From a virus, in UHGV virus genome UHGV-0095852: a DNA stretch of 28,110 bases. One strand, 5' to 3'. A program made the position numbers and the translations under genes. Position 1 is the first letter of the stretch, and the number at the start of each line of letters is the position of its first letter. The notes under the pieces were generated by a model. The model saw nothing but the letters and a program-made list of their open reading frames with translations. It was not told where the DNA came from and made no database searches. This document shows positions 222-28,110 of this stretch, one piece after another.

Positions 222-706
222 ATGCGGCACTCTCTCCGCCCGTCACCGCTCTGTCTCGGTTGTCGCGTTTGCCACGCCAGCCGTAACGAGGTTTAAAGTC
301 TTTGCACGTTTCCATCACTCGACTGCCGTCTGTGGCTGTTCGTTGCAGCGGGGGTGCCTCCCCCTGGGGATATCCCCGGCCTTACCCCATTCTTTCAAGA
401 CACAATGCAAGGCCGCATCCGCATAGGTGCATTACCGCAACATTAAGGAGACTTAGGGCAAAAGGTAATCGCCACAAAAAAATCCCTATGCCTCCTTAAT
501 GTTGAGGATGTGCATTGATGATGATTCGATGCGGCGAGTCCCGTTACTCTCTGCCGGACCATCATCAATGAACATCTTAAAAAGACCTTCCGTGGCTCAA
601 CATGTCTTGTTGTTTACTCCGTAAAGTGCTCTCTCTGAAACCACTTTACGCACTAAACCTGCTGAACTTTGGCTTGCTCGGTGCCAAAGCGAGCCCCTGT
701 ATGCAT

Positions 707-727
707 GTAATTTTCTAACACTTTAAT
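707..727 (+). promoter_or_regulatory. operator-like motif, copy 1 (core TTTTCTAACA)
   Basis: Intergenic; shares the (A)TTTTCTAAC core with five other intergenic copies. Confidence 0.3.
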
Positions 728-859: not shown

Positions 860-880
860 AAATTAGATTTCTAACATATT
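860..880 (+). promoter_or_regulatory. operator-like motif, copy 2 (AAATTAGATTTCTAACATATT)
   Basis: 20 of 21 identical to copy 3; abuts the stop codon of the 879-2099 gene. Confidence 0.4.
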
Positions 881-2099
881 ATTTCCCATAAAGATCTTCT
901 ACGCCCCCATTCTTCTTGTCCCATTCGTTAGCCCACACCCGGCAGGCATCAATAATTTCTTGACGACGGTCGCCCTGCATAAAGGGGATGCTTTCATGAA
1001 AACTACTTGGGATACAGGCCACGCTGAATACGGTATCAAACGCAGTCTGTTTGATAGCTTCCAACGTCTCTGGGCGCATTTTCAATTCATCGATCGGCGC
1101 ATCCTTAGAGTCCATAATCCGGCGATGCAGGCGCGGGAAATCAGTCTCCAGGTACGCCATAATTTTATCTGCCAGGCATTCGTCTATATCGGTATTCCAG
1201 TCCGTTTCGAAGCCGGGCAGGCGATAGTAAAGCGGCGTTCCCCATACTGATGGGATCACATCCATCGTCAGCAGGCGGTTGGTTCTAATTTGTTGATGGT
1301 AATTAGCCGTCAACAGAGCTTCACCACGCTGACCAGTCTCCGCAACCAGACCATGCGGGTACTCATGGATATAGGCAATAGCATCCACCCCGTCATACAT
1401 GAGCGGGAATGTCTCTGGCCTTTGTCCCATACCACAAGCGCGGTTCAGATCATGACCAAGCTGTGAGCACTCTCGTTTCAGCGTTTCAATAATGTTCTGC
1501 GCTGCTGCTAACTTTTTACGCAGTGTGACGCCTTCGCCTTGATACTTAATGCATTGCTGATTCAGCTCTGTTAAACGCTCTTTTAGTTCCCGACGCTCTC
1601 TTTTCAGCGCACGGTTATCCTTCTCCGCAACATCCAGTCGTTTTGACAGACTGGCTGGATAGTCTTTTTTGTAACGACTCAAATCGGCTTCTGCGGATTT
1701 GCGCAGTGTGTTTGCCTGTTCAAGACGCGCTTCCAGATTGCCGATCTCACTACGCATATTCGCGGCAAATTGATTAACAGCATTGCCAAGACTTTCAACT
1801 GTCGCTGATACGCCTGTGACTTGTGAAAAACGGATCAAGCCATCATTAACGGCTTGTTGATATTCCTCAAACTGATCCACCAGCTTGTTGTAATCAACCG
1901 TCCCTTCCTCAAGTAGCTGGTTGATCTCCGCGACCAGGTTATCAGTAGTGGCAATGACGCTCTCATGTAGCCGTCTGGACAGGTCATCCCCCGGATTCCG
2001 CTTTTGAATAAGGGCGATCTGTGTCCGCAGCGTTTCAATCGCGGCTGAGATGATTTCCAGATTAGAAGTATCAGTTTGTTGACTCATTGCAGTTCCCAT
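879..2099 (-). CDS. hypothetical protein, 406 aa; N-terminal about 230 aa coiled-coil-like (heptad-rich, E/K/R/L/Q rich), uncharacterised C-terminal domain
   Basis: Long uninterrupted ORF; own regulatory motif upstream and bidirectional terminator further upstream; no family recognised by eye. Confidence 0.6.
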   Translation of the reverse strand: MGTAMSQQTDTSNLEIISAAIETLRTQIALIQKRNPGDDLSRRLHESVIATTDNLVAEINQLLEEGTVDYNKLVDQFEEYQQAVNDGLIRFSQVTGVSATVESLGNAVNQFAANMRSEIGNLEARLEQANTLRKSAEADLSRYKKDYPASLSKRLDVAEKDNRALKRERRELKERLTELNQQCIKYQGEGVTLRKKLAAAQNIIETLKRECSQLGHDLNRACGMGQRPETFPLMYDGVDAIAYIHEYPHGLVAETGQRGEALLTANYHQQIRTNRLLTMDVIPSVWGTPLYYRLPGFETDWNTDIDECLADKIMAYLETDFPRLHRRIMDSKDAPIDELKMRPETLEAIKQTAFDTVFSVACIPSSFHESIPFMQGDRRQEIIDACRVWANEWDKKNGGVEDLYGK

Positions 2100-2112: not shown

Positions 2113-2133
2113 AAATTAGTTTTCTAACATATT
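2113..2133 (+). promoter_or_regulatory. operator-like motif, copy 3 (AAATTAGTTTTCTAACATATT)
   Basis: Sits 14-34 bp upstream of the start codon of the 879-2099 gene; contains TTAG-N4-CTAA dyad. Confidence 0.4.
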
Positions 2134-2171
2134 TTATTAGTATGAGGACAAGAGCGAAAGATGTGATAAAC

Positions 2172-4080: not shown

Positions 4081-7000
4081 TTAGGCCGCATCGGCGATTA
4101 TTTTACGCAGTTCATCTACCGAGTAACGAGTAGATACCATCCACGCCGGACGGTCAAAGTTCACATCAGCAACCGGGTTTGCTTCAAAATTCCAGAAACG
4201 CCCGCCAATCTTCTTAATCGCGTCTTTGGCGTTCCGTATTGTCGAGGAACCTGGCTGGTCGGCAATGAGATAAACCGCGCCAACGTCTTCGCTGACGCTC
4301 CACCAGCGCCCGCGAACACGCGCCTTAGCGCGAATCGGCTTATCATTAACCACAATGATATAGTCATCATTCGCCGCTTCATCAGCTCTGGCTTCAGCCA
4401 CTGCCGCCTGCTCTTCTCTTTTGCTTTCAGCCTGCTCAAGCCTTTCCGCGATCTCTGATTCAGTGGCCCCGCCGTTTTTCAGCGATACATAGTCCTGCCA
4501 CGTTGCCGATTTGAGCGCATCCGGCAACTCATTCACATAGTCGCCGTCTTTCAACTCACGGGCGCGACGGGTGGCCATTTCTACCAGGCGATTAACAGAA
4601 ACAGCATCAGCAAAATCGTCCTTACTAATGTGTTTTTCATCAAATGCATTGATGACAGCCCCCACCTTAATCCACTGCGCTGCTGGCGAATCCAGAGGAT
4701 TATCGGCCTGAACAATGGCTAATTTCGCTCCATCGACACCATTATTAGCCAGCTGCTCCAATGCCGACCAGCCATCGGCATCGCTGAGTGATTTATATTG
4801 CTCAAACAATGCATCGCGCCAGGCCACCAGCGCAGCTCGTGTTTTCTCAATTTTCGCCGTAATTTTCGCGGCCTTCACCTGATTAAACATCCGTTCAATG
4901 TCATCAGTGTTGCTAAAGGCTTTCATCCTGCCCTGGAATAAACGGTATGCCACCACGGTCTTCCAGAAAGATTCCAGCCCTTCTCCGGACGGTTTACGGA
5001 ACAGGCTAAGAATATCTTCAGAAGTAACTTTATTAAGTGAGCGACCGGACAAACCACGCCCTGCCATCCAGTTTTCAAACTCCTGGGAAACATCATCCAT
5101 CGTGGCCTGTGACCCCCATGCCTGCATTCCCTGGATGTAATCATATCCATACAATGCCTGGAGGAATCCCTCGCCGTCCACGACATTCAGCGGGTTATCA
5201 CTGGCTTGTATTTTTGCCACTTCACGCTTCAGCGCCTCGTCGTTGCCATCAGGATATATCCATCGCTCAGGTGCTATATCCGATGCTCGCCCGATTTTTT
5301 GGCCTATCACGCCATCATAGGTCGATGACAGCGCGATCTGACCATCATCTGTGCGATAAGCCCAGTATTTAATAGCTGAACCACCGCCCCATACTCTACC
5401 AGGCTTCCCGGCAGTGACATTCATTACCCCATTGCGAATAGCATCATAGAACTGATCGCGCGTAAGTGTTGTTGATAGCTGGTGGCATTGAACACCACGT
5501 GCAGCTGTTTCACGCGATTCTGCAACTCCCTCTTCAAAGGTTACCGATTCAATTATCAGGTTAAAGGGCAAAAATAATGCCGTCCCCGGAGAACGAGAGT
5601 AACGACTAGCCACATCCAGCCAGGATATGCGGCACGTACACCCGCCCCTTTCCGCATCAATGGCGGTAACACGAACAATTGCTGTCGTATTGTGATTCTC
5701 ATCGATGATCGCGCGATAATGGCTGCCCTTGTGCAACAAGATATTTTTCTCAGTGCGTACATACTCCTGTGGGTTCTGCAATACATCGGCATCAAGCTCC
5801 AGAACCCCGGCTTTAATCGCACGTTCCAGATCACCACGAGAACGTTTCATAACGGTGTCAGCGTCTTTAGCTCTGGTGATCGCAAAGCGTAGCTCCCGCA
5901 CACGTTTTCTGTAGTCTCGCAACTGTTCCAGAACATATTTCTGCCCGTTCCTGTTCGTCCCCGCTTTAATCAGGTCGTCAAGATTGCGCTGGTAATGCTC
6001 TACCTGCTCCATCGCGCTTTTCAGTTCTGTCTCCATCATGCCGATATCTTTCCCGGCAGCATTCGCCGCTTTCAGGTAGTTATCGAGAGCATTATTGGCT
6101 TCGCGTAGGGCTTTCAGTTTCAGACGTTCTTCACGCTCTTGCGCCTGACGACTCATGATTGCACGGCGTTCTTCCGGATTTGCCGCCAGCATAATGGCGC
6201 GTTCATCTGCGTCATCCGCATCACCATTGGCGATCTCTGACATGTCTGAGGTCATCACCATATTGATCCAGTCCTTCTTACGTTTCAGCGTATCCAGACG
6301 GAAGTCATCAAATGTGCCTTTGCCACAATAGTAGTGAACATTGACCTTTTCTTGTGGTGAGCCTACCCGAGCGCCGCGCCCATTACGTTGGTCGATACTG
6401 GCAGGAGTCCAGGGTAGTGTCAGATGGTGGATATCGGTTGTACCGATGTGCAAGTTAATACCTACTTCAGCCTTCTTGTTACAGATTATGATGCGCGTGC
6501 GACCTTCGTTATAGTCGGCGGCAATACCTTCCATGCCCTCAAGGCCAGCATCATTTTTAGCTGAGAGATAATCCTCATATTGGGCAAGTTTGCTGTAGTA
6601 GGTTTCCCATGCACCTTCTTTGTATTCACCGTTTTTATTTGGCGTAGGTTCAGTCGGCTTATTCACCTTCTTCAGCTTGACGCCGCCAGCCTGGCTAACT
6701 GTCGTCGCATTGATAATGCCTATCTCCTGCTCCGGCATTTGCAGTGCACTGGCAATAATACGGCGCAGCTTCTGGTGCTGGGCTTTTTCATCAATGAAGA
6801 CGATTTGTTTACCGTTCTTCAGACCTTCACGAAGGTTTTCGATCAGCGCGGCATACTTCGGCGGGATGGGGTGTGATACCTGCTGCATATCAATACCGGC
6901 AGCCGCAATGGCCTTCAGTATTTCAGCTTCCAGTTCAATGCCAGCACGTATTTCAACATGCGACGGATGTTCGCTAAAGGTGGTCTTCACTACCTTGCTG

Positions 7001-10000
7001 GTACGCGTACTGACCAGCCCACCAGCGCCATCTTCTTCGGCCTCGTCTGCATCATCTGCCACTTTACCGCCAGCTACTTTTGGCAGGGCATCAGCAATAG
7101 CTTTTACCTTGTCTGCAAGCTCAACGGGGAACTGGAATGTAATCGCACTGGCATACAGATCAGGATCTATAGCAACCTTATCCATGTCGCGGATGATGGA
7201 GAAGATGAAATCATCCGGTTTTTCGTTTGTGATATGCCCGTTTTCATCGACCGTCAGCGCATCTTTACTACTTAACTCCTGTGCACGCTTACGAAGTTCT
7301 TCGTAAATGGCCTCTTGCTCTCCTGTCATCGGGATCTGCAAGGTATTCTCGACAATATCAGGGATTTTTACCGTCGCCCCGACGTCCGCAGCAGTCTTCA
7401 GAGTAGTCCAGCGATGGAAAATACCACGCAGACCATCCAGGTTCTGGAAGCCCACCAGTCCCTGCTTCTCTTCCACCTCACCGGAAATTTTCTGAACCTG
7501 AACTGTGGCTGTTTTACCGAACACGCGAACGAAATCATCCGGCGTAACAATACCCATGCGCATCCACTCTTCCTGCGGAATGACAGTAGACAGCATGTTG
7601 AAAGCATCAATCGGGCTGTTCACCAGCGGTGTTGCCGTCAGCATAACCACACCACGCCCGTTGTTGCGTTTCATCATGTACGCAGCTTTTACAGCCATGT
7701 CGCGGGCCATTTTGGATACTGCCGGGTTAGGCAAATATGCCAGTTGCCCCGCTTCGCGCCCGGCGCTAAAGGAGTTGCGGTAGTTATGTCCTTCGTCGGC
7801 AATTACGCTATCGAAGTTCATATCCTCAAAGTACGGGATATTCTGCTTCTTCGTTGTACCGGTATTTGCGGCCTGGTCCTTAATCTTGTTCTTCTTCTGC
7901 GCGTCACGGTGTTTGCCAGATGCCAGGTCAAGACGCCCCATTTCCACAGCATTAAAGACCGCTTGCTGTGAGTTTTCCTCAATGGTTTCTTCTCGTAGCG
8001 GGATAGACGCGAATTGCTCTTTTGTCATGATGACCGTTCGCCAATTTGACGACGGGATCATGTTCATGCGCTGAACGATAACGGCGCTGGCGGACTCTTT
8101 CACAACATTTCGGGTAAGAGGCTGCCCGTTACTGTCGAGGCGTGGTTCGCCATTTTCATCAAGCACCGGCGCGGTCAGAATATTTCCGCTGTCATCACGA
8201 ACTTCATCCAGACCGATAAACATCATATTGGCGAAGGCATCAGCACTGTAGAAGCTCTGTGCCTCGTGATACCAGTTCTGATAAACCGCCTTCGGAACAA
8301 CAATACACGTGCGTTTAGTGCGACCTGTTTCGAAGTTATACGCCTCAAGCGCAAGCGCGGTCGTGGTTTTACCCAGCCCGGTACCAAATCCCATGATGCC
8401 GCGCCCATCTTCTGACAAGCGCCGAACTTCTTCATTCTGATAAGTCAGAGGAATGCGCTTCCCACTAATCCCCTCCAGGCCAAGCGGTGCGTCAGAATGC
8501 GTAAACGGGATGAAGCCATTAAATGCGTCGTTATAGTCGCGGGCTATCTGATCAGCCTGCGGGTGAGTGCGTAACCAGTCGTTGAAGCTAATTTCCAGTT
8601 GAGCAATCTTATCCAGGTACTCGTTAGCGTTCTGCCCACGCGGTTTAATGCCGTTCAGGTAGTTTTCTAACTGGTTCAGGAAGCCGTCTTTATTGTTGGC
8701 CTTCTTGAACTCATTCCCGTTTTTGCCGTTTACGGTTCGTAGTTGATAGCCAGTAAATACCCCGTCCTTACCTTCGTAATCGTCCGGAGATACCAGAATG
8801 CCGTCCTCAACCTTAAGGTCGGGTTCTGTATACTTAAACTCGTCATAGCCCTGCTCTGCCAGGAACTCTTTTATCAAGCGGCGATCCAGCCAGCGGGCGT
8901 TCAGATTAACGGTGACTTTATTTAGTGGCGTGAAAATGCGTTTCTCTTCGATTTTCGCCAACTGACGCTCAAAGTTCGCTTTCTGCTCACCTGTTGACGC
9001 ATCACGCCAGCCCACCAGCAATGCTGTTTTGGTTGCAATATCGCCGCTGGTGGCGCGGTCCATCGGCAGCAGGCAGCCATACCCATCAATAGCGATATCA
9101 TCAAATTTCGCCAGGTATTCCAGAGCAGCATCGTCGTCTCCTGGCAGTTCGCCAGCAAACGCCTCACGAAAATCGTCCAGTGTGATTGGATTAAGTGCCA
9201 CGTCACTGAAAAGGTGGGTTACAACTTGTTCCGGGCGTGTAAAGTCAATACCGGCAGCACCATCCGTTACATCAAGTCGTCCAGCAAGGAGGTCAGAAGC
9301 AGAGCCGTCCTGTTTCACGTTGCCAGTGAAAGTCATCCAGTTTTTAGCGCCAGCTTCAGCAATCCCATTCAGCTTAATCGCGTGCGGCGGACCATACTTC
9401 GCAATTTCGGCTTCCGCCAGGCGCGCGGCATCAGCAAGTTCATCATCAACATTTTCCCCCAGATTACGCTTATCAAGCGCCTTGTTGATCAACTGCCCTA
9501 TCAGTGCGCCGCGCATAACGCGTTCTCTGTCTTTTTCTCTCTGCTTGCCAGCAAAGCGAATCATTGCCGCTACTTCATCACTGATAACCGACGGATAGTC
9601 GGACGCGATCGCCGATATCTGGTCCCATGACAACGCCAGAATGCCATTTGTTGACTGAAACGCGATCTGCAGATCACCAAACGTCGTAACACCATATCGA
9701 TTTACATCAAGAGCGGAGGATTTGGTTGTCGCGTCCTTGACCCATTTCAGGCCATCAAACTCATGCCAGATGCCGCCTACAAGGCGTTTATCGCCCACTT
9801 TCGCGCCCTGCCATGCCTGAGTAGTTACGCCAAGCAAATCCCAATTAATGCGGCTTTCAAAGCGGCGCGATAGAGCGGTTTTCATCGACTCATTGGATAC
9901 ACGACCGTCCTTTTTCACCACCAGGGTATTGCGGAAGCTGGTACGCTCCATATCGCCGTAAACAAATCGCTTCCCTTCGGTTGTAAACCATTTCCCTTTG

Positions 10001-10920
10001 AGGAAGGTATCCCAAAGGACGTTTGCCGACTTGAGCGTTGCATCATCCGTGTCGGGGATCATCTCCAGGAAGGTTTCCGGGTGTTTACGCAATACCCATA
10101 CGTCCACCACTGTATCTGTACCGGATTCGCTGAACGTACCAGAAGGCATACGATGTGCGCCCAAAAATTCCGCTTTACGGCTGACTTTATCGCGCAATTT
10201 TTTGTATTTCGTACCATCGGTCATGCCATTCGGCACCACCAATACAATTAGTCCACCAGGCTTAACCTTGTCGATCGTGCGCAGCACAAAGTAATTGCCA
10301 ACGTTCTTCTCGTTTGCATATGCCGGATCAAGCCCGGCAACGCCGGAACGCCCTTCACCAAACGGTACGTTACCAACAGCGTGGTCATACATTGCGTCTT
10401 TCGCCGCCAGCGCCTCAAACGCCCCGATATTCACATCGTCTTCCGGGTGCAAAAGCTGGTTTATTCGACCGGAAATCGGAGATAGTTCGGCGCTGGTCAT
10501 TATCATGCCCTGCCGTTTTGTCTCCTGGAAAATACCTGTGCCCGCTGATGGTTCCAGTACGTGCCCGCCATCAATACCGTAGTCAGCAAACAGATCCCAT
10601 ATACCTTCAGCCATAAACTGTGGTGTGTAGTATTCGTATTGGCTGCCCTCACCATCTGTCAGGCCGCCTTCACCGGTATACCCGGCAAGAATCTGACGTT
10701 GTTCGTCAGTTAATTTCGCCCCATCGAAGCCGGGCGGAAGGGAATTAAGAAGCTCTACTGCGGCGTTGTTTGCTGCCCGCCGTGTTTTTTGAATGCTGAC
10801 ACCATCGACTTTCTTAACGCCAAAGGTCGCAACAGCACGTAATTTATGCAACCGACTAACAATTTCAATCAGTTCGCCTAAGCTGGAGGCTTCACTGATT
10901 GAATGAAGTAGTTTATCCAA
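4081..10920 (-). CDS. darB: DarB-like antirestriction protein: N-terminal N6-adenine methyltransferase domain fused to SF2 helicase
   Basis: 2279-aa ORF; MTase motif I LEPSAGTGIF and motif IV GNVPFG; Walker A GFGTGLGKTT; DEGH box VIADEGH; helicase motif VI QRNGRGARVG; GAGGGGG RBS. Confidence 0.9.
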   Translation of the reverse strand: MDKLLHSISEASSLGELIEIVSRLHKLRAVATFGVKKVDGVSIQKTRRAANNAAVELLNSLPPGFDGAKLTDEQRQILAGYTGEGGLTDGEGSQYEYYTPQFMAEGIWDLFADYGIDGGHVLEPSAGTGIFQETKRQGMIMTSAELSPISGRINQLLHPEDDVNIGAFEALAAKDAMYDHAVGNVPFGEGRSGVAGLDPAYANEKNVGNYFVLRTIDKVKPGGLIVLVVPNGMTDGTKYKKLRDKVSRKAEFLGAHRMPSGTFSESGTDTVVDVWVLRKHPETFLEMIPDTDDATLKSANVLWDTFLKGKWFTTEGKRFVYGDMERTSFRNTLVVKKDGRVSNESMKTALSRRFESRINWDLLGVTTQAWQGAKVGDKRLVGGIWHEFDGLKWVKDATTKSSALDVNRYGVTTFGDLQIAFQSTNGILALSWDQISAIASDYPSVISDEVAAMIRFAGKQREKDRERVMRGALIGQLINKALDKRNLGENVDDELADAARLAEAEIAKYGPPHAIKLNGIAEAGAKNWMTFTGNVKQDGSASDLLAGRLDVTDGAAGIDFTRPEQVVTHLFSDVALNPITLDDFREAFAGELPGDDDAALEYLAKFDDIAIDGYGCLLPMDRATSGDIATKTALLVGWRDASTGEQKANFERQLAKIEEKRIFTPLNKVTVNLNARWLDRRLIKEFLAEQGYDEFKYTEPDLKVEDGILVSPDDYEGKDGVFTGYQLRTVNGKNGNEFKKANNKDGFLNQLENYLNGIKPRGQNANEYLDKIAQLEISFNDWLRTHPQADQIARDYNDAFNGFIPFTHSDAPLGLEGISGKRIPLTYQNEEVRRLSEDGRGIMGFGTGLGKTTTALALEAYNFETGRTKRTCIVVPKAVYQNWYHEAQSFYSADAFANMMFIGLDEVRDDSGNILTAPVLDENGEPRLDSNGQPLTRNVVKESASAVIVQRMNMIPSSNWRTVIMTKEQFASIPLREETIEENSQQAVFNAVEMGRLDLASGKHRDAQKKNKIKDQAANTGTTKKQNIPYFEDMNFDSVIADEGHNYRNSFSAGREAGQLAYLPNPAVSKMARDMAVKAAYMMKRNNGRGVVMLTATPLVNSPIDAFNMLSTVIPQEEWMRMGIVTPDDFVRVFGKTATVQVQKISGEVEEKQGLVGFQNLDGLRGIFHRWTTLKTAADVGATVKIPDIVENTLQIPMTGEQEAIYEELRKRAQELSSKDALTVDENGHITNEKPDDFIFSIIRDMDKVAIDPDLYASAITFQFPVELADKVKAIADALPKVAGGKVADDADEAEEDGAGGLVSTRTSKVVKTTFSEHPSHVEIRAGIELEAEILKAIAAAGIDMQQVSHPIPPKYAALIENLREGLKNGKQIVFIDEKAQHQKLRRIIASALQMPEQEIGIINATTVSQAGGVKLKKVNKPTEPTPNKNGEYKEGAWETYYSKLAQYEDYLSAKNDAGLEGMEGIAADYNEGRTRIIICNKKAEVGINLHIGTTDIHHLTLPWTPASIDQRNGRGARVGSPQEKVNVHYYCGKGTFDDFRLDTLKRKKDWINMVMTSDMSEIANGDADDADERAIMLAANPEERRAIMSRQAQEREERLKLKALREANNALDNYLKAANAAGKDIGMMETELKSAMEQVEHYQRNLDDLIKAGTNRNGQKYVLEQLRDYRKRVRELRFAITRAKDADTVMKRSRGDLERAIKAGVLELDADVLQNPQEYVRTEKNILLHKGSHYRAIIDENHNTTAIVRVTAIDAERGGCTCRISWLDVASRYSRSPGTALFLPFNLIIESVTFEEGVAESRETAARGVQCHQLSTTLTRDQFYDAIRNGVMNVTAGKPGRVWGGGSAIKYWAYRTDDGQIALSSTYDGVIGQKIGRASDIAPERWIYPDGNDEALKREVAKIQASDNPLNVVDGEGFLQALYGYDYIQGMQAWGSQATMDDVSQEFENWMAGRGLSGRSLNKVTSEDILSLFRKPSGEGLESFWKTVVAYRLFQGRMKAFSNTDDIERMFNQVKAAKITAKIEKTRAALVAWRDALFEQYKSLSDADGWSALEQLANNGVDGAKLAIVQADNPLDSPAAQWIKVGAVINAFDEKHISKDDFADAVSVNRLVEMATRRARELKDGDYVNELPDALKSATWQDYVSLKNGGATESEIAERLEQAESKREEQAAVAEARADEAANDDYIIVVNDKPIRAKARVRGRWWSVSEDVGAVYLIADQPGSSTIRNAKDAIKKIGGRFWNFEANPVADVNFDRPAWMVSTRYSVDELRKIIADAA

Positions 10921-11070: not shown

Positions 11071-11556
11071 ATGGCAAACATTGAACCTCGCTGGCTAATT
11101 GAAGCCCGTAAGCACATTGGCCTGACTGAAATAAAAGGCGCTAAACACAACCCTGAAATCGTTCAGTTCTGGCGCGACATCAAGCGCGGCGGAATTAAAG
11201 ACGATGAAACGCCGTGGTGCGCAGCATTTGTCGGTGCAATGCTGGAACGTGTAGGCATCCGCTCAACAAGATTTGAGTCGGCAAAATCCTATCTGGATTG
11301 GGGCGAGAAATTAGATACACCGGCATACGGATGTATCGTTGTATTTACCCGCGTAGGCGGTGGGCACGTAGGCTTCGTTGTCGGACGCCGCGCCAATGGC
11401 GATCTGCTTGTCCTGGGTGGGAACCAGGGGGATGCGGTTAATATTCGCGCATTCCCAACATCAAGAGTGTCTGGCTATCGCTGGCCTGCTGGCGAACCAC
11501 GCAATACCGCTCTGTTACCAGTCGGAGACGCAGCAACCTCAACTAATGAGGCATGA
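11071..11556 (+). CDS. putative cell-wall peptidase, NlpC/P60 or CHAP-like papain fold
   Basis: Conserved Cys (ETPWCAAFV) and His (GGGHVGFVV) in the spacing typical of this fold; GGGAG RBS 7 nt before ATG. Confidence 0.65.
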   Translation: MANIEPRWLIEARKHIGLTEIKGAKHNPEIVQFWRDIKRGGIKDDETPWCAAFVGAMLERVGIRSTRFESAKSYLDWGEKLDTPAYGCIVVFTRVGGGHVGFVVGRRANGDLLVLGGNQGDAVNIRAFPTSRVSGYRWPAGEPRNTALLPVGDAATSTNEA

Positions 11557-11580
11557 AAAAAGCCCCGGCCAGGCCGGGGC
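11555..11580 (-). terminator. rho-independent terminator for the minus-strand antirepressor operon, shared with the convergent peptidase gene
   Basis: Stem GCCCCGG/CCGGGGC followed by T6 on the minus-strand reading. Confidence 0.6.
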
Positions 11581-11588
11581 ATCACGCA

Positions 11589-11789
11589 TCAAGTCACGAT
11601 CCAATCATTACCGACTATATCAGCCGTCGATAAATAAACTTCCCGGATCTGGAGTCCATTAATACAAAACCATCCGGTAGTAGAGTAATTATCAGGCCAG
11701 GCCCATACACCAACACTCCATGCTTTACGGCGGCACACTTCAGCCTGTTCTTCCCTGATTTTTTTTACCGCCTGCATGATGTCCATCAT
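11589..11789 (-). CDS. small hypothetical protein, 66 aa, translationally coupled to the upstream Rha-like gene
   Basis: Start overlaps the Rha-like stop; GGAGG RBS inside the 3' end of the upstream gene. Confidence 0.45.
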   Translation of the reverse strand: MMDIMQAVKKIREEQAEVCRRKAWSVGVWAWPDNYSTTGWFCINGLQIREVYLSTADIVGNDWIVT

Positions 11790-12493
11790 TCACCTCCCCA
11801 ACCGATCACCTGGAATTGCCCCATTTTGGGGTGATACCAGCGTTTTCCTCGGTGTTCAGCCTCCGACATCATCCGGTTAAAAGCATTCATGAAGGGAGAT
11901 AAGGCCACGATGGAACGACGCGACAATACCCCCTCTGGAGTTAAAAACTCATGTGTATCGGTGGGAATCCGGTAAGCGTTAACCAGGTTGCGACATTTGG
12001 CTTCAGTCAGGCCACATTTCGCCGCCAGCTGTCGGTAGCCAATGTAGCCTTCCGGAATATTGCCTTTCTTGATTTGCTCGACGGTTTCAGCGACCTGGCT
12101 AACCTTTGACTCAACAGCATGAAGCCGCTTTTGCTGCTGAACTGCATTTGCAGCCATTGCGGCGATCATCTCTATTTCGGTCAACGGCTGGCGTACTTGT
12201 TCTTCCAGTTCGCGCCAGCGGTCCACCAGCCGGGCGGTGAATTCGGGAGAGAGCTGCGCGACGACGATAATGCTATCGCGCTTGCCTTGCTCGCCTTCGA
12301 AGACGTAAGCCTCAACACTACGCCGTAGTCCTAAGTTATTGATTTTTTCGAAAACCTCAATTTGAGGACGAGCAATAACGCCACCTTTGGCTAATGTCTC
12401 AATAGTGCGTTTCACATTGTCATGACGTTTTCCCACCAGCTCCGCGATCTCAATGCTGGTCATTGATGGCTTTTCGAGAATGCAGATATCCAT
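11786..12493 (-). CDS. Rha-family phage regulatory protein (antirepressor-like)
   Basis: N-terminal MTSIEIAELVGKRHDNVKRTIETL matches the characteristic Rha N-terminal motif; GGAGG RBS 7 nt before ATG. Confidence 0.75.
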   Translation of the reverse strand: MDICILEKPSMTSIEIAELVGKRHDNVKRTIETLAKGGVIARPQIEVFEKINNLGLRRSVEAYVFEGEQGKRDSIIVVAQLSPEFTARLVDRWRELEEQVRQPLTEIEMIAAMAANAVQQQKRLHAVESKVSQVAETVEQIKKGNIPEGYIGYRQLAAKCGLTEAKCRNLVNAYRIPTDTHEFLTPEGVLSRRSIVALSPFMNAFNRMMSEAEHRGKRWYHPKMGQFQVIGWGGE

Positions 12494-12717
12494 CAGTGAG
12501 CCTCCGCAATGCCGGGATTGGTAATATTGCGATACCAGGGATTGGTGTTTGGTTGTGGGGAAGTAGAGAAACGACCAGTGAGAACGCCATACTGATCAGG
12601 GATCAGAGAACGGGCTTCTTTTTCAGTTGCGGCAATTGCGAAGTGATCGCAGTGTTTTTGCAGGGAGTGAAAACGCCAGATGAATTCTGGACGTGAGCAA
12701 GGATTGGCATTAACCAT
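12493..12717 (-). CDS. small protein, 74 aa, overlapping the start of the antirepressor gene (icd-like position)
   Basis: ATG start with GAGG 8 nt upstream; stop overlaps the Rha-like ATG. Confidence 0.45.
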   Translation of the reverse strand: MVNANPCSRPEFIWRFHSLQKHCDHFAIAATEKEARSLIPDQYGVLTGRFSTSPQPNTNPWYRNITNPGIAEAH

Positions 12718-13046
12718 AGTTACGGCCTCACTAACAGGTTTAACAACCTGCTACCCGCTGTCAAACAGGTGGCAGGACGTGACAGGGTTGACAGACTGGC
12801 GTTAGTGAAACCAGCAGGCCTAAGCCTCCCCATCACGCCCCACCATAATTCGGGCGTAACGCGGTTTACGGACACAAAAATACCGCAATATCGGAAATCT
12901 GCGGTTGTCCGCACTAACATTCAGGCTGTCAAACCTGGTCGCAGAATTTGCTACGACGGCATGAATATAAGCCTGAAAACATGGAAGATCAACTAAAAAT
13001 TTCAGCAATGGATGACTTCAGTCGATGATGCAGATCATACATTCCG

Positions 13047-13080
13047 ATTTAGAAACAGCAAATTAATTTTCTAATACAAA
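13047..13080 (+). promoter_or_regulatory. operator-like motif, copy 5, composite dyad (ATTTAGAAA ... TTTTCTAAT)
   Basis: Two inverted half-sites 12 bp apart, upstream of the immunity-like operon. Confidence 0.4.
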
Positions 13081-13130
13081 TCATCGAGAGAACATTTTCC
13101 GATCATTGGGATGTTTTGTAGACACACAGG

Positions 13131-14093
13131 TCATCCCCTAAATCCCGCAGGGATTGACCAATCCTCCCGGTCAAATTCAGACCGATAGCCACGCTGTTTC
13201 ATCAGGTCAAAGGCTTCACCAATGGTTGCACACCCCTGGGAGCCAGAATAATCCATTGAGAAATCCAGGGCACTGGATTGTTTAGGCTTATTCACTGCGG
13301 TAGCGGCACTACGTATCCATGCAAATTTTTTTGCCAGCTTTTCAGCGGTACGATACAGAGCCTGCCGTTTTGCGTGCCCCTCGTCTGAACGACGCTTTGC
13401 AGCTCTCGCTTTTGCCGCCGCCAGGCAGTGGTTGGTATGTTCTTCCCTGATTACTGGTTTTTTATCCAGTAATCCATTATCCGCTTGGGAACTATCTGCT
13501 GGTGAAGCCTTTGGCTGAACCGCGCATGATCTTTCTCTTCTTTTGGCTATAGAGTGACTCTTATTTTCTATTGGCTGTTCATTTTGAACATGGGGGGACT
13601 TGTTCAATTTGAACAGGGGGTTCCCAGTTTCAAAAAAATACCGAACCTTTGAAATCAACTGCTTAACCAGTTTTGTGGCGTTCGCAAATTTGATGCCCTG
13701 CTTACCCCCTATCTCCATTGCTACATGAATGAAGTGGAGAAATTGTGTTGTAAACCGGTATACGTTACACACCTGAGCATTGTTATTCGCTACCTGATGT
13801 TGCTTAACAAGCATTCCGCACTTCGTCGCTTCAGCAAATGCCCGGCGCACAGTAGAAATACTGCGTCCTGTAATCTCGGACATATCAGCATATGAGCGAC
13901 GGATCATGTATTCATCGGTAGCTCCTGCCAGGTTGGCGAACTCGGCAATAATGGCGCTATGTGAAGGGGAAAGAAAACCGCTATGACGAGCAAAAAAACT
14001 CAACTGATGACCTTTGATTTTTTTGTGGTATTCAGTGTTGTTTTTATACTCAGAAGTGTTGAAAGTTACTGAAACTGAATTTAAAATACTCAT
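13131..14093 (-). CDS. hypothetical HTH protein, 320 aa; possible RepL-like lytic replication protein with internal origin-like repeats
   Basis: HTH-like segment ISTVRRAFAEATKCGMLV; dense direct and inverted repeats inside the coding sequence at 13509-13656. Confidence 0.55.
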   Translation of the reverse strand: MSILNSVSVTFNTSEYKNNTEYHKKIKGHQLSFFARHSGFLSPSHSAIIAEFANLAGATDEYMIRRSYADMSEITGRSISTVRRAFAEATKCGMLVKQHQVANNNAQVCNVYRFTTQFLHFIHVAMEIGGKQGIKFANATKLVKQLISKVRYFFETGNPLFKLNKSPHVQNEQPIENKSHSIAKRRERSCAVQPKASPADSSQADNGLLDKKPVIREEHTNHCLAAAKARAAKRRSDEGHAKRQALYRTAEKLAKKFAWIRSAATAVNKPKQSSALDFSMDYSGSQGCATIGEAFDLMKQRGYRSEFDREDWSIPAGFRG

Positions 14094-14189: not shown

Positions 14190-14261
14190 CAGTCGCTACC
14201 GGAGCAGTGACCGCGATCCTACTCGATCACATCGGACAGGATCAACAGTGTATATAAATAC

Positions 14262-14283
14262 ACTATGTTAGAAATTTAACTTC
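14262..14283 (-). promoter_or_regulatory. operator-like motif, copy 6 (minus-strand reading GAAGTTAAATTTCTAACATAGT), overlapping palindrome AGTGTAT-ATAA-ATACACT
   Basis: Same TTTCTAACA core in the opposite orientation; intergenic. Confidence 0.35.
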
Positions 14284-25418: not shown

Positions 25419-25991
25419 TTACAACTCAGTTTGAGTTTGGCGCTTCTCTACAGGGTGATAACGATAAATCGTCGATACACCGATATCGTAAATAATTGCC
25501 AACTGTTTCCTGCTGTAGCCATTTTCGATCAACCTCGCTATTTGCTCATGTTGTTCTTTTGTCAACTTCGGGCGACGTCCGCCAATGCGTCCCTGTTCGC
25601 GTGCAGCTGCCAGTCCAGCCAGGGTTCTCTCAACAATTAATTCACGTTCCATTTCTGCTAAAGCCCCCATGACGTGAAAAAAGAAACGCCCCATGGGTGT
25701 TGAGGTGTCAATGCTGTCTGTCAGACTACGGAAATTAACACCTTTTTCCCGCAGCTCCTCAATAAGCGTGATCAGGTGTTTCATACTTCTGCCAAGCCTG
25801 TCCAGCTTCCAGACAACCAGCGTATCTCCTTCTGATAACGTTCTGAGCAGCTTTTTCAATCCTGGTCTGGCTGACTTTGTTCCGCTGATTTTATCTTCAA
25901 AAATTAGTTCACATCCTGCGCAGTTCAGTGCATTTCTTTGTAAATCTGTGTTTTGGTCATTTGTTGACACACGAATGTAGCCAATTTGCAT
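25419..25991 (-). CDS. serine DNA invertase, Hin/Gin/Cin/Pin/Min family
   Basis: MQIGYIRVSTNDQNTDLQRNAL resolvase N-terminal domain with catalytic Ser, C-terminal HTH; start set at ATG 25991 (GAGG 9 nt upstream) rather than 26000. Confidence 0.92.
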   Translation of the reverse strand: MQIGYIRVSTNDQNTDLQRNALNCAGCELIFEDKISGTKSARPGLKKLLRTLSEGDTLVVWKLDRLGRSMKHLITLIEELREKGVNFRSLTDSIDTSTPMGRFFFHVMGALAEMERELIVERTLAGLAAAREQGRIGGRRPKLTKEQHEQIARLIENGYSRKQLAIIYDIGVSTIYRYHPVEKRQTQTEL

Positions 25992-26045
25992 GAAAAACAT
26001 CCTCTTTGTTTAGTTAAAAATACATAGTTGGTATAGGTAGGGATT

Positions 26046-26071
26046 AAGACTAAAACGTTGGTTTGGGGGAA
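26046..26071 (+). other. 26-bp recombination crossover-type site 1 (minus-strand reading TTCCCCCAAACC AA CGTTTTAGTCTT)
   Basis: Half-site ending in AAACC, 2-bp core, degenerate right half; 55 bp from the invertase start. Confidence 0.55.
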
Positions 26072-26491
26072 GGCTCGGCGCTGCCCGTTGGTGTGCCTGT
26101 TCCGTGGCCCTCAGCCACGCCGCCAACGGGGTGGCTGAAATGTAACGGAGCAGCATTTTCTTCTGAAAAGTACCCAAATCTGGCAAAGGTTTACCCCACT
26201 AATAAATTGCCGGATTTACGGGGAGAATTTATTCGCGGTTGGGATGATGGGCGCGGGATTGATGCGGGACGTACCCTGCTTTCAGGGCAGGATGGTACAA
26301 GTTTTTCTCATTACGGAGGTAATTTCGACATTGGGTCTGGTCATTCAATCAATAACTATGACCAAATTGTTTCTAACCAACCAGGATTTTCCCGTTTTTC
26401 ATTTGCAGGGCCTTCACGAGGTGATGGGGTTAATTATGTAACCATTCGTCCTCGTAACATTGCGTTTAATTATATCGTAAGGGCGGCATGA
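26063..26491 (+). CDS. tail fibre C-terminal variable cassette 1 (promoterless gene segment)
   Basis: Conserved start GEGSALPVGVPVPWPSATPPTGWLKCNG, unique middle, conserved end RPRNIAFNYIVRAA; no ATG or RBS of its own. Confidence 0.7.
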   Translation: MGEGSALPVGVPVPWPSATPPTGWLKCNGAAFSSEKYPNLAKVYPTNKLPDLRGEFIRGWDDGRGIDAGRTLLSGQDGTSFSHYGGNFDIGSGHSINNYDQIVSNQPGFSRFSFAGPSRGDGVNYVTIRPRNIAFNYIVRAA

Positions 26492-26510
26492 AAACGTTGG
26501 TTTAGGGGAA
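26485..26510 (+). other. 26-bp recombination crossover-type site 2 (minus-strand reading TTCCCCTAAACC AA CGTTTTCATGCC)
   Basis: Same structure as site 1, at the junction between cassette 1 and cassette 2. Confidence 0.55.
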
Positions 26511-26930
26511 GGCTCTGCATTGCCCGTTGGTGTACCTGTTCCGTGGCCCTCAGCCACACCGCCAACGGGGTGGCTGAAATGTAACGGAGCAGCATTTTCT
26601 TCTGAAAAATACCCAAATCTGGCAAAGGTTTACCCCACTAATAAATTGCCGGATCTACGGGGCGAATTTATTCGAGGTTGGGATGATGGACGAGGTGTGG
26701 ACAATGGGCGAGCATTATTAAGCAGCCAAGAGGCTACAAACTTTTCTCAGCGTGCCGGAAATATAGGCGATGGTGCGGGGCACGCAATTAATTTTCATGA
26801 TGGCATCGTCGGAAATCAGCCAGGATTTTCACGATTTAATTTCACCAGTAACTCTGTAGGTGATGGTATAAATTTTGTTGCTGTCAGGCCGCGAAATATC
26901 GCATTTAATTACATCGTAAGGGCGGCATAA
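26499..26930 (+). CDS. tail fibre C-terminal variable cassette 2 (promoterless gene segment)
   Basis: Frame open from the crossover site (GRHENVGLGEGSALPVG ...); same conserved ends as cassette 1, different central part. Confidence 0.7.
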   Translation, partial: GLGEGSALPVGVPVPWPSATPPTGWLKCNGAAFSSEKYPNLAKVYPTNKLPDLRGEFIRGWDDGRGVDNGRALLSSQEATNFSQRAGNIGDGAGHAINFHDGIVGNQPGFSRFNFTSNSVGDGINFVAVRPRNIAFNYIVRAA

Positions 26931-26949
26931 AAACGTTGGTTTAGGAGAA
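26924..26949 (+). other. 26-bp recombination crossover-type site 3 (minus-strand reading TTCTCCTAAACC AA CGTTTTTATGCC)
   Basis: Same structure as sites 1 and 2, at the junction between cassette 2 and cassette 3. Confidence 0.55.
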
Positions 26950-27399
26950 GGCTCGGCGCTGCCCGTTGGTGTACCTGTTCCATGGCCCTCAGCCACACCT
27001 CCAACGGGGTGGCTGAAATGCAATGGTGCAGCATTTTCTTCTGAAAAGTACCCAAATCTGGCAAAGGTTTATCCCACCAATAAATTACCGGATTTACGCG
27101 GTGAGTTTATCCGTGGTTGGGATGATGGGCGAGGTGTGGATGCGGGAAGGGTCATCTTAAGCATACAGGGGTGGTTAACAGGAAGTCATTATCATAATAT
27201 TCGGTCATGGGACGCGTGGGATAACACGGTATTGGTGCCAAATGACAGAGGGGGGGATAGTCTGTTGTCGACAGATAACGCCGTCCAAGAAGGAGCGATT
27301 AATGGTAAATTTACCAGTCAATACAGAACGGAGTTATCTGGGGGGAATGAAACCCGCCCACGTAACATTGCCTTCAATTATATTGTGAGAGCAGCATAA
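26938..27399 (+). CDS. tail fibre C-terminal variable cassette 3 (promoterless gene segment), followed by a tail fibre assembly gene
   Basis: Frame open from site 3 through the stop at 27399; the ORF track shows only the part after the first GTG (27136). Confidence 0.7.
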   Translation, partial: GLGEGSALPVGVPVPWPSATPPTGWLKCNGAAFSSEKYPNLAKVYPTNKLPDLRGEFIRGWDDGRGVDAGRVILSIQGWLTGSHYHNIRSWDAWDNTVLVPNDRGGDSLLSTDNAVQEGAINGKFTSQYRTELSGGNETRPRNIAFNYIVRAA

Positions 27400-28010
27400 T
27401 GGATAATGCGATATTAAATAGCGAACTTATAGCCATACAGGCAGGAAACATTATCGTTTATAACTATGATGGTGGTAATCGGGAATATATTTCTGCATCA
27501 ACTGAATATCTTGCTGTTGGCGTTGGTATTCCGGCAAATTCTTGTTTGGATGCTCCAGGCTCACATAAAGCAGGTTATGCGATTCTCCGTTCAGAGGATT
27601 TAAGTTCATGGGAGTATGTGCCAGATCATCGTGGCGAAACTGTCTATAGCATTGACACTGGGAATCCCGAAGAAATCACGGTGTTGGGTGACTATCCGGA
27701 AAATACAACCACTATCGCCCCGCTAACACCATACGACAAATGGGATGGAGAGAAATGGGTGGTTGATACTGAGGCTCAACATAGTGCAGCTGTAGATGCA
27801 GCAGAAACAAAACGTCAGTCATTGATTGATACTGCGATGGATTCCATTAGTCTGATTCAGTTGAAATTACGGGCTGGACGGAAGTTGACGCAGGCAGAAA
27901 CCACGCAGCTTAACTCCGTGCTAGATTATATAGACGAGCTGAACGCGATGGATTTAACCACGGCACCAGATCTCAACTGGCCTGAAAAACAACTTTCTAC
28001 AGCCAGTTGA
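27399..28010 (+). CDS. tail fibre assembly protein (chaperone)
   Basis: Start overlaps the cassette 3 stop (TAATG); C-terminal TTAPDLNWPEK matches the conserved tail fibre assembly C-terminal motif. Confidence 0.8.
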   Translation: MDNAILNSELIAIQAGNIIVYNYDGGNREYISASTEYLAVGVGIPANSCLDAPGSHKAGYAILRSEDLSSWEYVPDHRGETVYSIDTGNPEEITVLGDYPENTTTIAPLTPYDKWDGEKWVVDTEAQHSAAVDAAETKRQSLIDTAMDSISLIQLKLRAGRKLTQAETTQLNSVLDYIDELNAMDLTTAPDLNWPEKQLSTAS

Positions 28011-28015
28011 TATAA

Positions 28016-28110
28016 TTAATCCGCCCTCACAATATAATTAAATGCAATATTACGAGGGCGGGTTTCTAAGCCAGCAGTACCTAAATTAGCTACGGACTGT
28101 TTATATGTTT
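28016..28110 (-). CDS. 3' end of a tail fibre gene or cassette (partial, 5' end beyond the window)
   Basis: Minus-strand frame open to the window edge and ending GLETRPRNIAFNYIVRAD-stop, the same C-terminal signature as cassettes 1-3. Confidence 0.6.
   Translation of the reverse strand, partial: TYKQSVANLGTAGLETRPRNIAFNYIVRAD
28021..28063. terminator. palindrome CCGCCCTC ... GAGGGCGG between the convergent assembly gene and minus-strand fibre segment; possible bidirectional terminator
   Basis: 8-bp perfect arms read directly; followed by GTTTCT on the plus side. Confidence 0.35.

Follow-up and report, generated by a model that had tools for sequence, protein, structure and literature searches.

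In the immI region of phage P22, expression of the antirepressor is limited by sar, an antisense RNA that comes from the transcription unit of ant itself, and in phage P4 the CI RNA, which is cut from a leader, limits the lytic genes and pairs with repeated targets located both upstream and downstream of CI. The mechanism of the immI operon of phage P1 has been described elsewhere (PMC8198154, PMC8546580, PMC8201110), and the P1 C4 RNA is a processed, trans-acting RNA of 77 bases (PMC8546580 and its reference Citron and Schuster 1992). An ImmI-related region with c4, icd and an antirepressor has been reported in a D6-like plasmid (PMC6799933), and the record of phage D6 already annotates icd and an "anti-repressor". 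Here we analysed a stretch of 28,110 nucleotides of viral DNA (UHGV virus genome UHGV-0095852; hereafter the window), in which an earlier note, made from the letters of the DNA, had described an operator-like dyad, a leader with repeats and a small ORF overlapping a Rha-family gene, and had proposed a module analogous to P1 immI. The immI C4 antisense-RNA system is already known and that call is a correct rediscovery of it: a textbook RNA-based immunity circuit could be recovered by reading the sequence alone, with little that is new otherwise.

Results

With high confidence the region is an immI operon, carried by a phage-plasmid that is D6-like and related to P1, and its features are collected in the table. 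The window is 99.9% identical to the Escherichia coli plasmid NZ_CP135715.1 and about 96% identical to phage D6, while 372 bp of it match the c4-icd region of P1 at 93% identity in a nucleotide comparison. The order repL-c4-icd-Rha-orf66 recurs in 110 PLSDB plasmids (at a coverage of at least 80%), in phage D6 and in 17 IMG/VR loci. An Rfam scan of the window reported two families, both in the leader: the C4 antisense RNA (RF01695; 12850..12765 on the minus strand, full-length model, 68.2 bits for a gathering score of 45) and the c4-a1b1 leader element (RF03163; 12970..12918 on the minus strand, 54.4 bits for a gathering score of 46.7, E 2.4e-11). With E values of about 1e-11 these matches are beyond chance; C4 and c4-a1b1 were the only families reported, and the scan found no second c4 copy in the window. 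A truncated icd-like pseudogene is present elsewhere in the related plasmid, with no P1-type c4 before it. The segment 12844..12768 is identical to the annotated 77-nt P1 C4 RNA at 76 of 77 bases, and the C4 segment is predicted to fold with a minimum free energy of -42.2 kcal/mol (z = -4.5), with b' placed in a loop. The c4-like RNA, which had been suggested as a possibility, is a true member of the C4 family.

The 74-aa ORF that follows the leader shares 61% identity with P1 Icd (E 8e-27) and matches NF033153, phage_ICD_like, with 40 bits (cut-off 25), and the repeats of the leader correspond to a1, a' and a2 of the P1 annotation. Because of the C4 family membership, the Icd identity and the a1/a'/a2 repeats, the relation of this module to P1 immI is, judged from sequence, one of homology and not of analogy alone; the kinship with immI proposed in the earlier note holds, and the word analogous understated it. 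In the P1 and P7 records c4 is annotated as a separate misc_RNA. In the RefSeq record of the near-identical plasmid and in the D6 record, icd and the Rha-like gene are annotated while the c4 RNA is not, so that a leader of 413 bp looks "empty"; this is an annotation gap.

Table. Features of the immI operon in the window, listed in the direction of transcription.
Feature	Position	Strand	Basis
Operator-like 21-bp site GATTTGTATTAGAAAATTAAT; monovalent counterpart of P1 Op51/Oc4	13062..13082	-	motif recurrence
Putative upstream promoter, adjoining the operator: -35 TTGCTG (13061..13056), 16-nt spacer, -10 TATGAT (13039..13034)	13034..13061	-	read from sequence
Second promoter-like site, TTGATC-17-TATATT	12964..12992	-	promoter scan, P1 alignment, P1 annotation
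c4-a1b1 element: two hairpins, a1 in the loop of the second	12918..12970	-	RF03163
a1 target GTTTGACAG, complementary to a' of C4	12926..12934	-	sequence, P1 record, covariation
b1 target GTTAGTG, complementary to b' of C4; P1 specificity type	12912..12918	-	sequence, covariation
C4 antisense RNA; length of 77 nt taken from the homologous mature P1 RNA	12768..12844	-	Rfam, P1 identity, folding
b' CACTAAC, in the hairpin loop of C4	12807..12801	-	sequence, fold
a' CTGTCAACC, mostly in the single-stranded junction of C4	12794..12786	-	sequence, fold
a2 target GTTTGACAG, just 3' of C4	12758..12766	-	sequence, P1 record, covariation
b2 target GTTAGTG (12735..12729), which continues into the Shine-Dalgarno GAGG of icd (12729..12726)	12726..12735	-	sequence, covariation
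icd, 74-aa Icd-like host cell division inhibitor	12493..12717	-	P1 Icd match, NF033153, RefSeq of the near-identical plasmid
235-aa Rha/Roi-family gene at the P1 ant position	11786..12493	-	PF09669, phrog_63, D6 annotation
66-aa ORF, hypothetical in D6 and the plasmid	11589..11789	-	phrog_7385, E 2e-48
Intrinsic terminator-like hairpin, 8 G-C pairs, then TTTTTT	11562..11580	-	terminator scan, sequence

All three ORFs of the operon are joined by overlaps of stop and start codons. The TGA of icd and the ATG of the Rha-like gene share one base (TGATG at 12495..12491), exactly the kind of overlap that had been read from the sequence, and in the sequence ATGA the stop of the Rha-like gene and the start of the 66-aa ORF likewise overlap. 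The terminator announced behind the 66-aa ORF was also found, as a G+C-rich hairpin followed by a T-run (11580..11562) that lies between the immI operon and the convergent CHAP-domain gene.

The 235-aa protein belongs to the Rha family, since PF09669 (Phage_pRha) matches its residues 11-98 over positions 1-91 of a 91-position profile with 36.9 bits (cut-off 29.9); the stricter model TIGR02681 is not reached (18 bits vs 45.95). It also matches phrog_63, labelled 'anti-repressor Ant', and the annotation in D6 reads 'similar to HK97 Roi'. Homology of this protein to P1 Ant1 or KilA was rejected after four negative comparisons: BLASTP against P1 Ant1 and KilA was not significant, a PDB sequence search was negative, a permissive Pfam search found no PF03374 (ANT/KilAC) match in the 235-aa protein even at E values up to 5, whereas P1 Ant1 and KilA match it at 1e-30 or better, and hhalign of the two cargo families, Rha-type against Ant-type, returned a probability of 0.1%. 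The family assignment made in the earlier note stands, while the antirepressor role attached to it is based on position and label, and the protein lacks an ANT/KilAC domain. On its position and its database labels we regard the Rha-like protein as a putative antirepressor, and from its position we infer that it would antagonise a C1-type repressor. The gene behind icd shares no homology with P1 ant1/ant2, and this circuit may accordingly have an output other than that of P1.

The function of this gene could also be read differently. In a scenario that we consider unlikely, the c4-icd control is genuine but the Rha/Roi-like gene encodes a DNA-binding regulator or a lytic-growth factor originating from lambdoid phages, and the operon would gate another effector together with Icd, not a C1-type inactivator. 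The N-terminal Phage_pRha region is a winged-helix DNA-binding domain, the body of the gene shares 75.5% DNA identity with the 'Roi' gene of a lambdoid phage, and the protein has neither the ANT/KilAC domain nor similarity to P1 Ant1 and KilA. Besides, PMC3430580 implicates Rha and Roi proteins in lytic growth, the only role that it describes for Roi, and reports no antirepressor activity for them. However, the gene sits exactly at the ant position and overlaps icd translationally; the PHROG families that match it are labelled anti-repressor and the D6 annotators chose putative anti-repressor, although these are labels and not tests; and the cargo of natural c4-icd modules is either Ant-type (62) or Rha-type (20) and of no other family, a restriction that suggests that the two are functionally equivalent. 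We retain the Rha-like gene as encoding a putative antirepressor.

Upstream of the leader, a composite operator-like dyad had been proposed at 13047-13080. Its perfect inverted repeat extends over 7 nt only (TTAGAAA/TTTCTAA), and of its two arms only the promoter-distal one is part of a motif present at further sites in the phage. This motif was derived de novo, and a position weight matrix was made from 10 sites of the near-identical plasmid other than the one at 13062..13082, which it scores at 28.5 bits; the highest score in 10 mononucleotide shuffles of the window was 13.4 bits. About 16 sites with the operator motif were found in the plasmid, including sites upstream of the C1-like gene, ref and rdgC. 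The proximal arm (13047-13063) scores below 0 and has one weak look-alike in the window, and the bivalent operator was discarded: the operator motif holds for the distal arm, the composite does not, and the site is monovalent. The P1 C1 operator consensus ATTGCTCTAATAAATTT is absent from the window even when up to 3 mismatches are allowed, so that the operator assignment relies entirely on motif recurrence. The C1-like protein of the plasmid shares 89.6% identity with D6 c1 and a distant similarity with P1 C1 (E 6e-8). The site at 13082..13062 is probably the operator to which the phage's own 345-aa D6-type C1 repressor would bind. The upstream promoter, a putative positional counterpart of the C1-controlled P51a/P2c4 of P1, falls under the threshold of the promoter scanner (3/6 in the -35, weak vs the consensus), and the second promoter-like site aligns with P51b/P1c4 of P1 (TTGACC-17-TATAGT).

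The leader, about 330 bp from the operator to the icd ATG, had been noted to contain two direct copies of a repeat and a near-complementary element. Both are present: in plus-strand reading, CTGTCAAAC occurs exactly twice in the window (12758-12766 and 12926-12934) and GGTTGACAG once (12786-12794), the ranges first given being a few bases too wide. A second complementary set had been missed, namely GTTAGTG at 12918..12912 and 12735..12729 with CACTAAC at 12807..12801. The P1 record lists a1, b1, a2 and b2 with identical sequences and in identical order, and describes b2 as 'target site b2 ... repression of icd ant translation'. In the window, a2 and b2 are complementary to a' and b', and b2 lies at the icd ribosome binding site, with the ATG at 12717. 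These complementarities were followed across 51 unique natural c4 loci (30 distinct rows). For the c4:target pairs (a1:a' with b1:b', and b':b2 with a':a2), 420/420 cells are standard pairs, compared with 26-52% paired in slid controls, and compensatory changes on both sides are seen in 8/14 c4:target pairs among the 51 variants. D6 differs from the window in a concerted way in b1, b' and b2. The duplex energy of whole C4 against its target was discarded as a measure, as it implied an unrealistic unfolding of C4.

That the complementary elements act in cis only, as alternative leader folds of an attenuator-like kind without a stable trans RNA, is very improbable. All of them lie on a single transcript, the minimum free energy fold of the whole leader pairs the surroundings of a1/b1 with those of a2/b2, and pairing in cis and in trans is not separable by covariation alone; but the C4 segment is, at all bases except one, the RNA that the P1 and P7 records annotate separately, it has a very stable fold of its own, and in the literature P1 C4 is the processed trans-acting RNA introduced above (PMC8546580). 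The earlier note had invoked alternative pairings close to the ribosome binding site of the small ORF: the complementarity is there, whereas in P1, according to the literature, pairing works via a processed trans RNA and not via leader folds alone. Hardly credible at all is a leader that encodes a small protein, with the repeats as coding coincidences, a reading which we reject: two minus-strand ORFs, and only two, are present (66 aa at 12920..12720 and 62 aa at 13008..12820) and an early P1 GenBank entry listed c4 as a CDS, but neither ORF is conserved, in line with the first impression that the leader holds no convincing ORF, the ATG of the 66-aa ORF lies inside the hypervariable b1 element and is missing in D6 and gone in other specificity types, D6 carries frame-breaking +1 and -1 indels inside that ORF, and the leader has strong Rfam structural matches and variation confined to positions that co-vary as base pairs. 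We keep to a C4 antisense RNA with paired targets on either side.

Discussion

The operon would be transcribed from two tandem promoters, the upstream one adjoining the probable C1-family operator, to give a transcript that is predicted to carry, in this order, a1, b1, C4 (b', a'), a2, b2 with the icd ribosome binding site, icd, the Rha/Roi-family gene, the 66-aa ORF and the terminator. By homology with P1, the 77-nt C4 RNA would be excised from this transcript and would act in trans, pairing with a2 and b2 via its exposed b' loop and its a' junction. Such pairing would occlude the icd Shine-Dalgarno, so that icd would stay untranslated and the coupled downstream genes would not be expressed. 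In P1 the downstream effect involves loss of coupling and transcriptional polarity, and polarity may be expected here by extension from P1. In a lysogen the downstream effector would thus be kept off, while a failure of repression or of C4 control would lead to production of Icd, with a block of cell division, and of the Rha-like protein.

A minor new point concerns the specificity of the RNA. At all 22 sites between 12918 and 12730 where D6 and P1 differ, the window agrees with P1, and on either side of this stretch it resembles D6; as judged from these sites, a P1-type c4 specificity cassette of approximately 190 bp is embedded in a D6 backbone. Among c4 loci there are at least 6 b types and 2 a types, and 11/12 combinations are seen, each perfectly matched at three sites. 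We tentatively put forward, as a possibility we do not yet hold to be the probable one, that c4 is a combinatorial specificity code swapped as a cassette between heteroimmune phage-plasmid lineages, that the window is a natural recombinant (backbone, C1 and operator type of D6, exact C4 specificity of P1) capable of cross-silencing with P1, and that the Rha/Roi-type effector is a non-homologous replacement of Ant. With the C4 specificity of P1 in a D6-like phage, mutual silencing in trans is predicted: if this is true, the immI effectors of a resident P1 prophage would be silenced by the phage of the window and vice versa, although neither primary repressor can replace the other, and D6 itself would stand outside this mutual silencing with P1. 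The exchange of the c4 cassette and the two alternative icd cargoes extend known P1/P7 biology and involve no new mechanism; they could be of use in predicting which of the P1-like and D6-like phage-plasmids, through which resistance genes spread in Enterobacteriaceae, are cross-immune.

Compared with P1 immI, the window shares the order a1, b1, C4 (b', a'), a2, b2 with the Shine-Dalgarno and icd, the identical a and b specificity sequences within an almost unchanged C4, a homologous icd that overlaps the next gene, and two promoter-like sites in tandem, the upstream one with a single probable repressor site (Op51, P51a/P51b in P1). It differs in the gene after icd, which in P1 encodes Ant1/Ant2 with ANT/KilAC and here a Rha/Roi-family protein; in the sequence of its probable operator, unlike that of P1, with a repressor about 20% identical to P1 C1; in the position of repL, which lies upstream of immI here, whereas kilA-repL is downstream in P1; in the lack of flanking kilA or sim genes; and in the extra 66-aa ORF at the end of the operon. 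D6 (NC_050154, orf17-orf19) and prophages such as pYU39_89 have the same backbone of repL, leader, icd, Rha/Roi-like 'anti-repressor', 66-aa ORF and convergent CHAP-domain gene (annotated as peptidoglycan hydrolase). The identity of D6 to the window reaches 95.6% over 2.3 kb, but D6 has ACTTACG as b1/b2 and CGTAAGT as b'. Finally, P7 immI has a homologous c4-icd of equal architecture, with c4 annotated as an antisense RNA, and differs in its a (TTAGCAG) and b (GATTGTG) elements, each two bases off those of the window and P1; the differences between the P7 and P1 elements fit the reported basis of P1/P7 heteroimmunity (PMC6906374).

Origin of the window and layout of the operon

From 11400 to 13700 the window matches the 93.1-kb E. 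coli plasmid NZ_CP135715.1 at 100% identity and phage D6 at 95.6%. Over 1-25455 its identity to the plasmid is 99.94%; the tail-fibre end alone diverges. By this near-identity and the D6 likeness, the window belongs to a plasmid prophage that is D6-like and related to P1. PLSDB contains 579 plasmids with a match to some part of the query; 110 plasmids cover at least 80% of it. Window 25456-28110 departs from NZ_CP135715.1; several repeated tail-fibre segments match there at 83-98% identity in both orientations, an arrangement reminiscent of a shufflon or an invertible C-segment-like region.

All features that an earlier note had described are present on the minus strand: a 74-aa ORF with a one-base overlap between its stop and the ATG of a 235-aa ORF, a 66-aa ORF overlapping the latter by ATGA, and a strong terminator-like hairpin behind it. 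The leader of about 330 bp does lack a convincing ORF, as had been noted; its two minus-strand ORFs (62-66 aa) are unconserved, with one ATG inside a hypervariable element and frame-breaking indels in D6.

Features of the immI-like operon in the window
Feature	Position	Strand	Basis or remark
Operator-like site	13082..13062	-	immI copy of the 21-bp motif
Second promoter-like site	12992..12964	-	TTGATC-17-TATATT; aligns with P1 P51b
c4-a1b1 leader element	12970..12918	-	Rfam RF03163
a1	12934..12926	-	P1-type element
b1	12918..12912	-	P1-type element
C4 antisense RNA	12850..12765	-	Rfam RF01695, full-length
b'	12807..12801	-	inside C4
a'	12794..12786	-	inside C4
a2	12766..12758	-	P1-type element
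b2	12735..12729	-	P1-type element; continues into icd Shine-Dalgarno GAGG
icd (74-aa ORF)	12717..12493	-	NF033153 and P1 Icd similarity
235-aa Rha-type ORF	12493..11786	-	Phage_pRha domain
66-aa ORF	11789..11589	-	PHROG family of unknown function
Terminator-like hairpin	11580..11562	-	terminator scan

A CHAP-domain (TIGR02594) protein is encoded convergently at 11071-11556(+) and ends 6 bp from the hairpin, which may act bidirectionally; past the CHAP gene comes a 2279-aa ORF for a DarB-like methyltransferase/helicase (4081-10920(-)). On the other side, repL (13131-14093(-)) runs in the same orientation and stops upstream of the immI operator-like site, with about 50 bp between them; this interval (13083-13130) showed no terminator-like site, so transcripts of the lytic replicon may read through into immI. 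P1 has the opposite order, immI being followed by kilA-repL, and kilA and sim, both found in P1, are missing here.

C4 RNA and its target elements

The two Rfam families detected in the leader, both described in 2010 (PMC2864571), score 68.2 bits for C4 (gathering score 45) and 54.4 bits for c4-a1b1 (gathering score 46.7). The P1 c4-icd region matches window 12606-12977 at 93% identity, and the annotated 77-nt P1 c4 maps to 12844..12768, its single mismatch falling in the first hairpin's loop. In the predicted C4 fold (-42.2 kcal/mol, z = -4.5), CACUAAC occupies the loop of a hairpin, and CUGUCA a junction that stays single-stranded. The P1 record gives the C4 binding sites in the order a1 TTGACAG, b1 GTTAGTGC, C4, a2 TTGACAG and b2 GTTAGTGA, b2 being annotated with repression of icd/ant translation; sequence and order are identical in the window. 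The Rfam matches and the P1 similarity thus support the earlier immI-like reading with a c4-like RNA. Its repeat elements correspond to the a set: the direct repeat CTGTCAAAC (as read on the plus strand) has exactly two copies in the 28 kb, a1 and a2, and the near-complement GGTTGACAG has one, a'. The b set had been missed.

The c4 RNA is missing from the RefSeq record of NZ_CP135715.1 and from the D6 genome record, where the 413 bp between repL and icd (window 12718-13130) are unannotated, yet Rfam detects both families. This absence reflects incomplete annotation and is no new finding.

Covariation and specificity types

Scanning IMG/VR with the conserved C4 stem pattern gave 51 unique true c4 leaders, including P1, D6 and the window. 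In 51 of 51, b1 equals b2 with b' as their exact complement, and likewise a1 equals a2 with a' as theirs. In an alignment of natural c4 loci from this source, a1:a' and b1:b', and b':b2 and a':a2, form standard pairs in 420/420 cells; 8 of the 14 pairs change on both sides, with no G-U pairs, while sliding the partner by 1-3 columns lowered pairing to 26-52%.

Among IMG/VR loci L004-L123 there are two a types (TTGACAG, TTAGCAG) and six b types (GTTAGTG, GATTGTG, ACTTACG, ACGAATG, GTACATG, ACTTGTG), and 11 of their 12 combinations occur; a more distant relative has a seventh b type. P1 and the window share TTGACAG + GTTAGTG, while P7 has TTAGCAG + GATTGTG and D6 has TTGACAG + ACTTACG; heteroimmunity between P1 and P7 has been reported to stem from small nucleotide differences in immI (PMC6906374). 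Specificity is combinatorial, each type being perfectly matched at three sites, and the sample holds no mismatched intermediates; since the a elements alternate with the b elements, at least two separate exchanges are required to produce a new pairing of types. The D6-type b' could fully pair with an ACTTGTG target through two G-U pairs, a hint that cross-reactivity may run in one direction. On some P1-like viral contigs the C4 stem pattern matches at two or three places (L018/L056/L109 on IMGVR_UViG_2703718869_000013, L015/L081/L115 on IMGVR_UViG_651053023_000001, and L059/L068), and typed matches that share a contig differ (L056 ACTTGTG and L109 GTTAGTG on the first; L015 GTACATG and L081 ACTTACG on the second).

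A mosaic test, restricted to sites where D6 and P1 differ, gave the D6 state throughout 12988 to 12934 (13 of 13) and the P1 state throughout 12918 to 12730 (22 of 22), icd being D6-like again. A patch of about 190 bp (b1, C4, a2, b2) thus has P1 specificity within a D6 backbone; window 12730-12918 is a recombinant patch, and the specificity cassette appears to have been exchanged as a whole. Such a patch predicts immI-level cross-talk with P1 and none with D6.

Probable operator, predicted promoters and the repressor

Even with 3 mismatches allowed, the window contains no match to the P1 C1 operator consensus. When NZ_CP135715.1 was searched with k-mers taken from the immI control region, an asymmetric motif of 21 bp emerged (consensus AATTTGTGTTAGAAAATTAAT); it has about 16 copies, some of them ahead of ref, rdgC and the C1-like gene. 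The immI copy scores 28.5 bits with a PWM built without it, against a shuffle maximum of 13.4. The dyad noted earlier at 13047-13080 does contain a 7-nt perfect inverted repeat (TTAGAAA/TTTCTAA), but only one arm scores with the PWM, and it was rejected as a two-armed operator. The operator-like site adjoins a -35-like TTGCTG, with TATGAT 16 nt on, a layout comparable to P1, where Op51 overlaps the -35 of P51a. The 345-aa repressor of NZ_CP135715.1 is 89.6% identical to D6 c1 and has distant similarity to P1 C1 (20% identity, E 6e-8). We infer from these sequences that repressor would bind the 21-bp site and that both predicted promoters would be active.

Further motif copies in the window lie at 2115-2135(-) (28.8 bits), 862-882(-) (25.7 bits), 706-726(-) (15.4 bits) and 14260-14280(+) (11.4 bits). 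The first is directly upstream of a 402-aa hypothetical gene, two further copies fall in a stretch without annotated gene, and the weak last one lies between a head-processing gene and repL.

Proteins behind the leader

At 61% identity to P1 Icd, the 74-aa ORF is Icd by sequence. The 235-aa protein, whose Phage_pRha domain is N-terminal, matches PHROG families labelled anti-repressor, and D6 annotation calls it a putative anti-repressor similar to HK97 Roi. It lacks the ANT/KilAC domain that P1 Ant1 and KilA both match (E 1e-30 or better), nothing significant was obtained against these two proteins by BLASTP or profile-profile comparison, and no solved relative was found. Because of this, and because the literature covered here mentions for Roi only an implication in lytic growth (PMC3430580), the antirepressor role is putative and positional. 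Among 83 c4-icd loci where the downstream gene is readable, 62 carry a P1 Ant-type gene and 20 a Rha-type gene, the latter distributed across five specificity types; in the one unassigned locus, the ORF taken as following icd was itself Icd-like.

Outside the window, NZ_CP135715.1 has a second, truncated Icd-like pseudogene near ref (50752-50871), with an operator-like motif nearby (50125-50145) and no P1-type c4 sequence before it; a second c4/icd-related region has been mentioned for a D6-like plasmid (PMC6799933).

Proposed mechanism and relation to known systems

By homology with P1, the operon would be transcribed from the two predicted promoters. C4, as taken from P1 (PMC8198154, PMC8546580, PMC8201110), would be excised from the leader transcript and pair with a2 and b2, which would shut off icd translation and thereby the coupled genes behind it; C1 would additionally repress the upstream promoter. 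Sequence membership, complementarity, covariation and gene overlap are established here, and C4 processing, trans action and polarity would carry over from P1.

The system is already known and is no new kind: icd and the anti-repressor are already labelled in the D6 genome record, and c4, icd and antirepressor homologues have been placed in the ImmI-related region of a D6-like plasmid (PMC6799933). Ant1/Ant2, one of the defining features of P1, is not found in the window, and the system is therefore the known D6 variant and no copy of P1; judged by its sequence, it is a P1-type immI operon in D6-like form.
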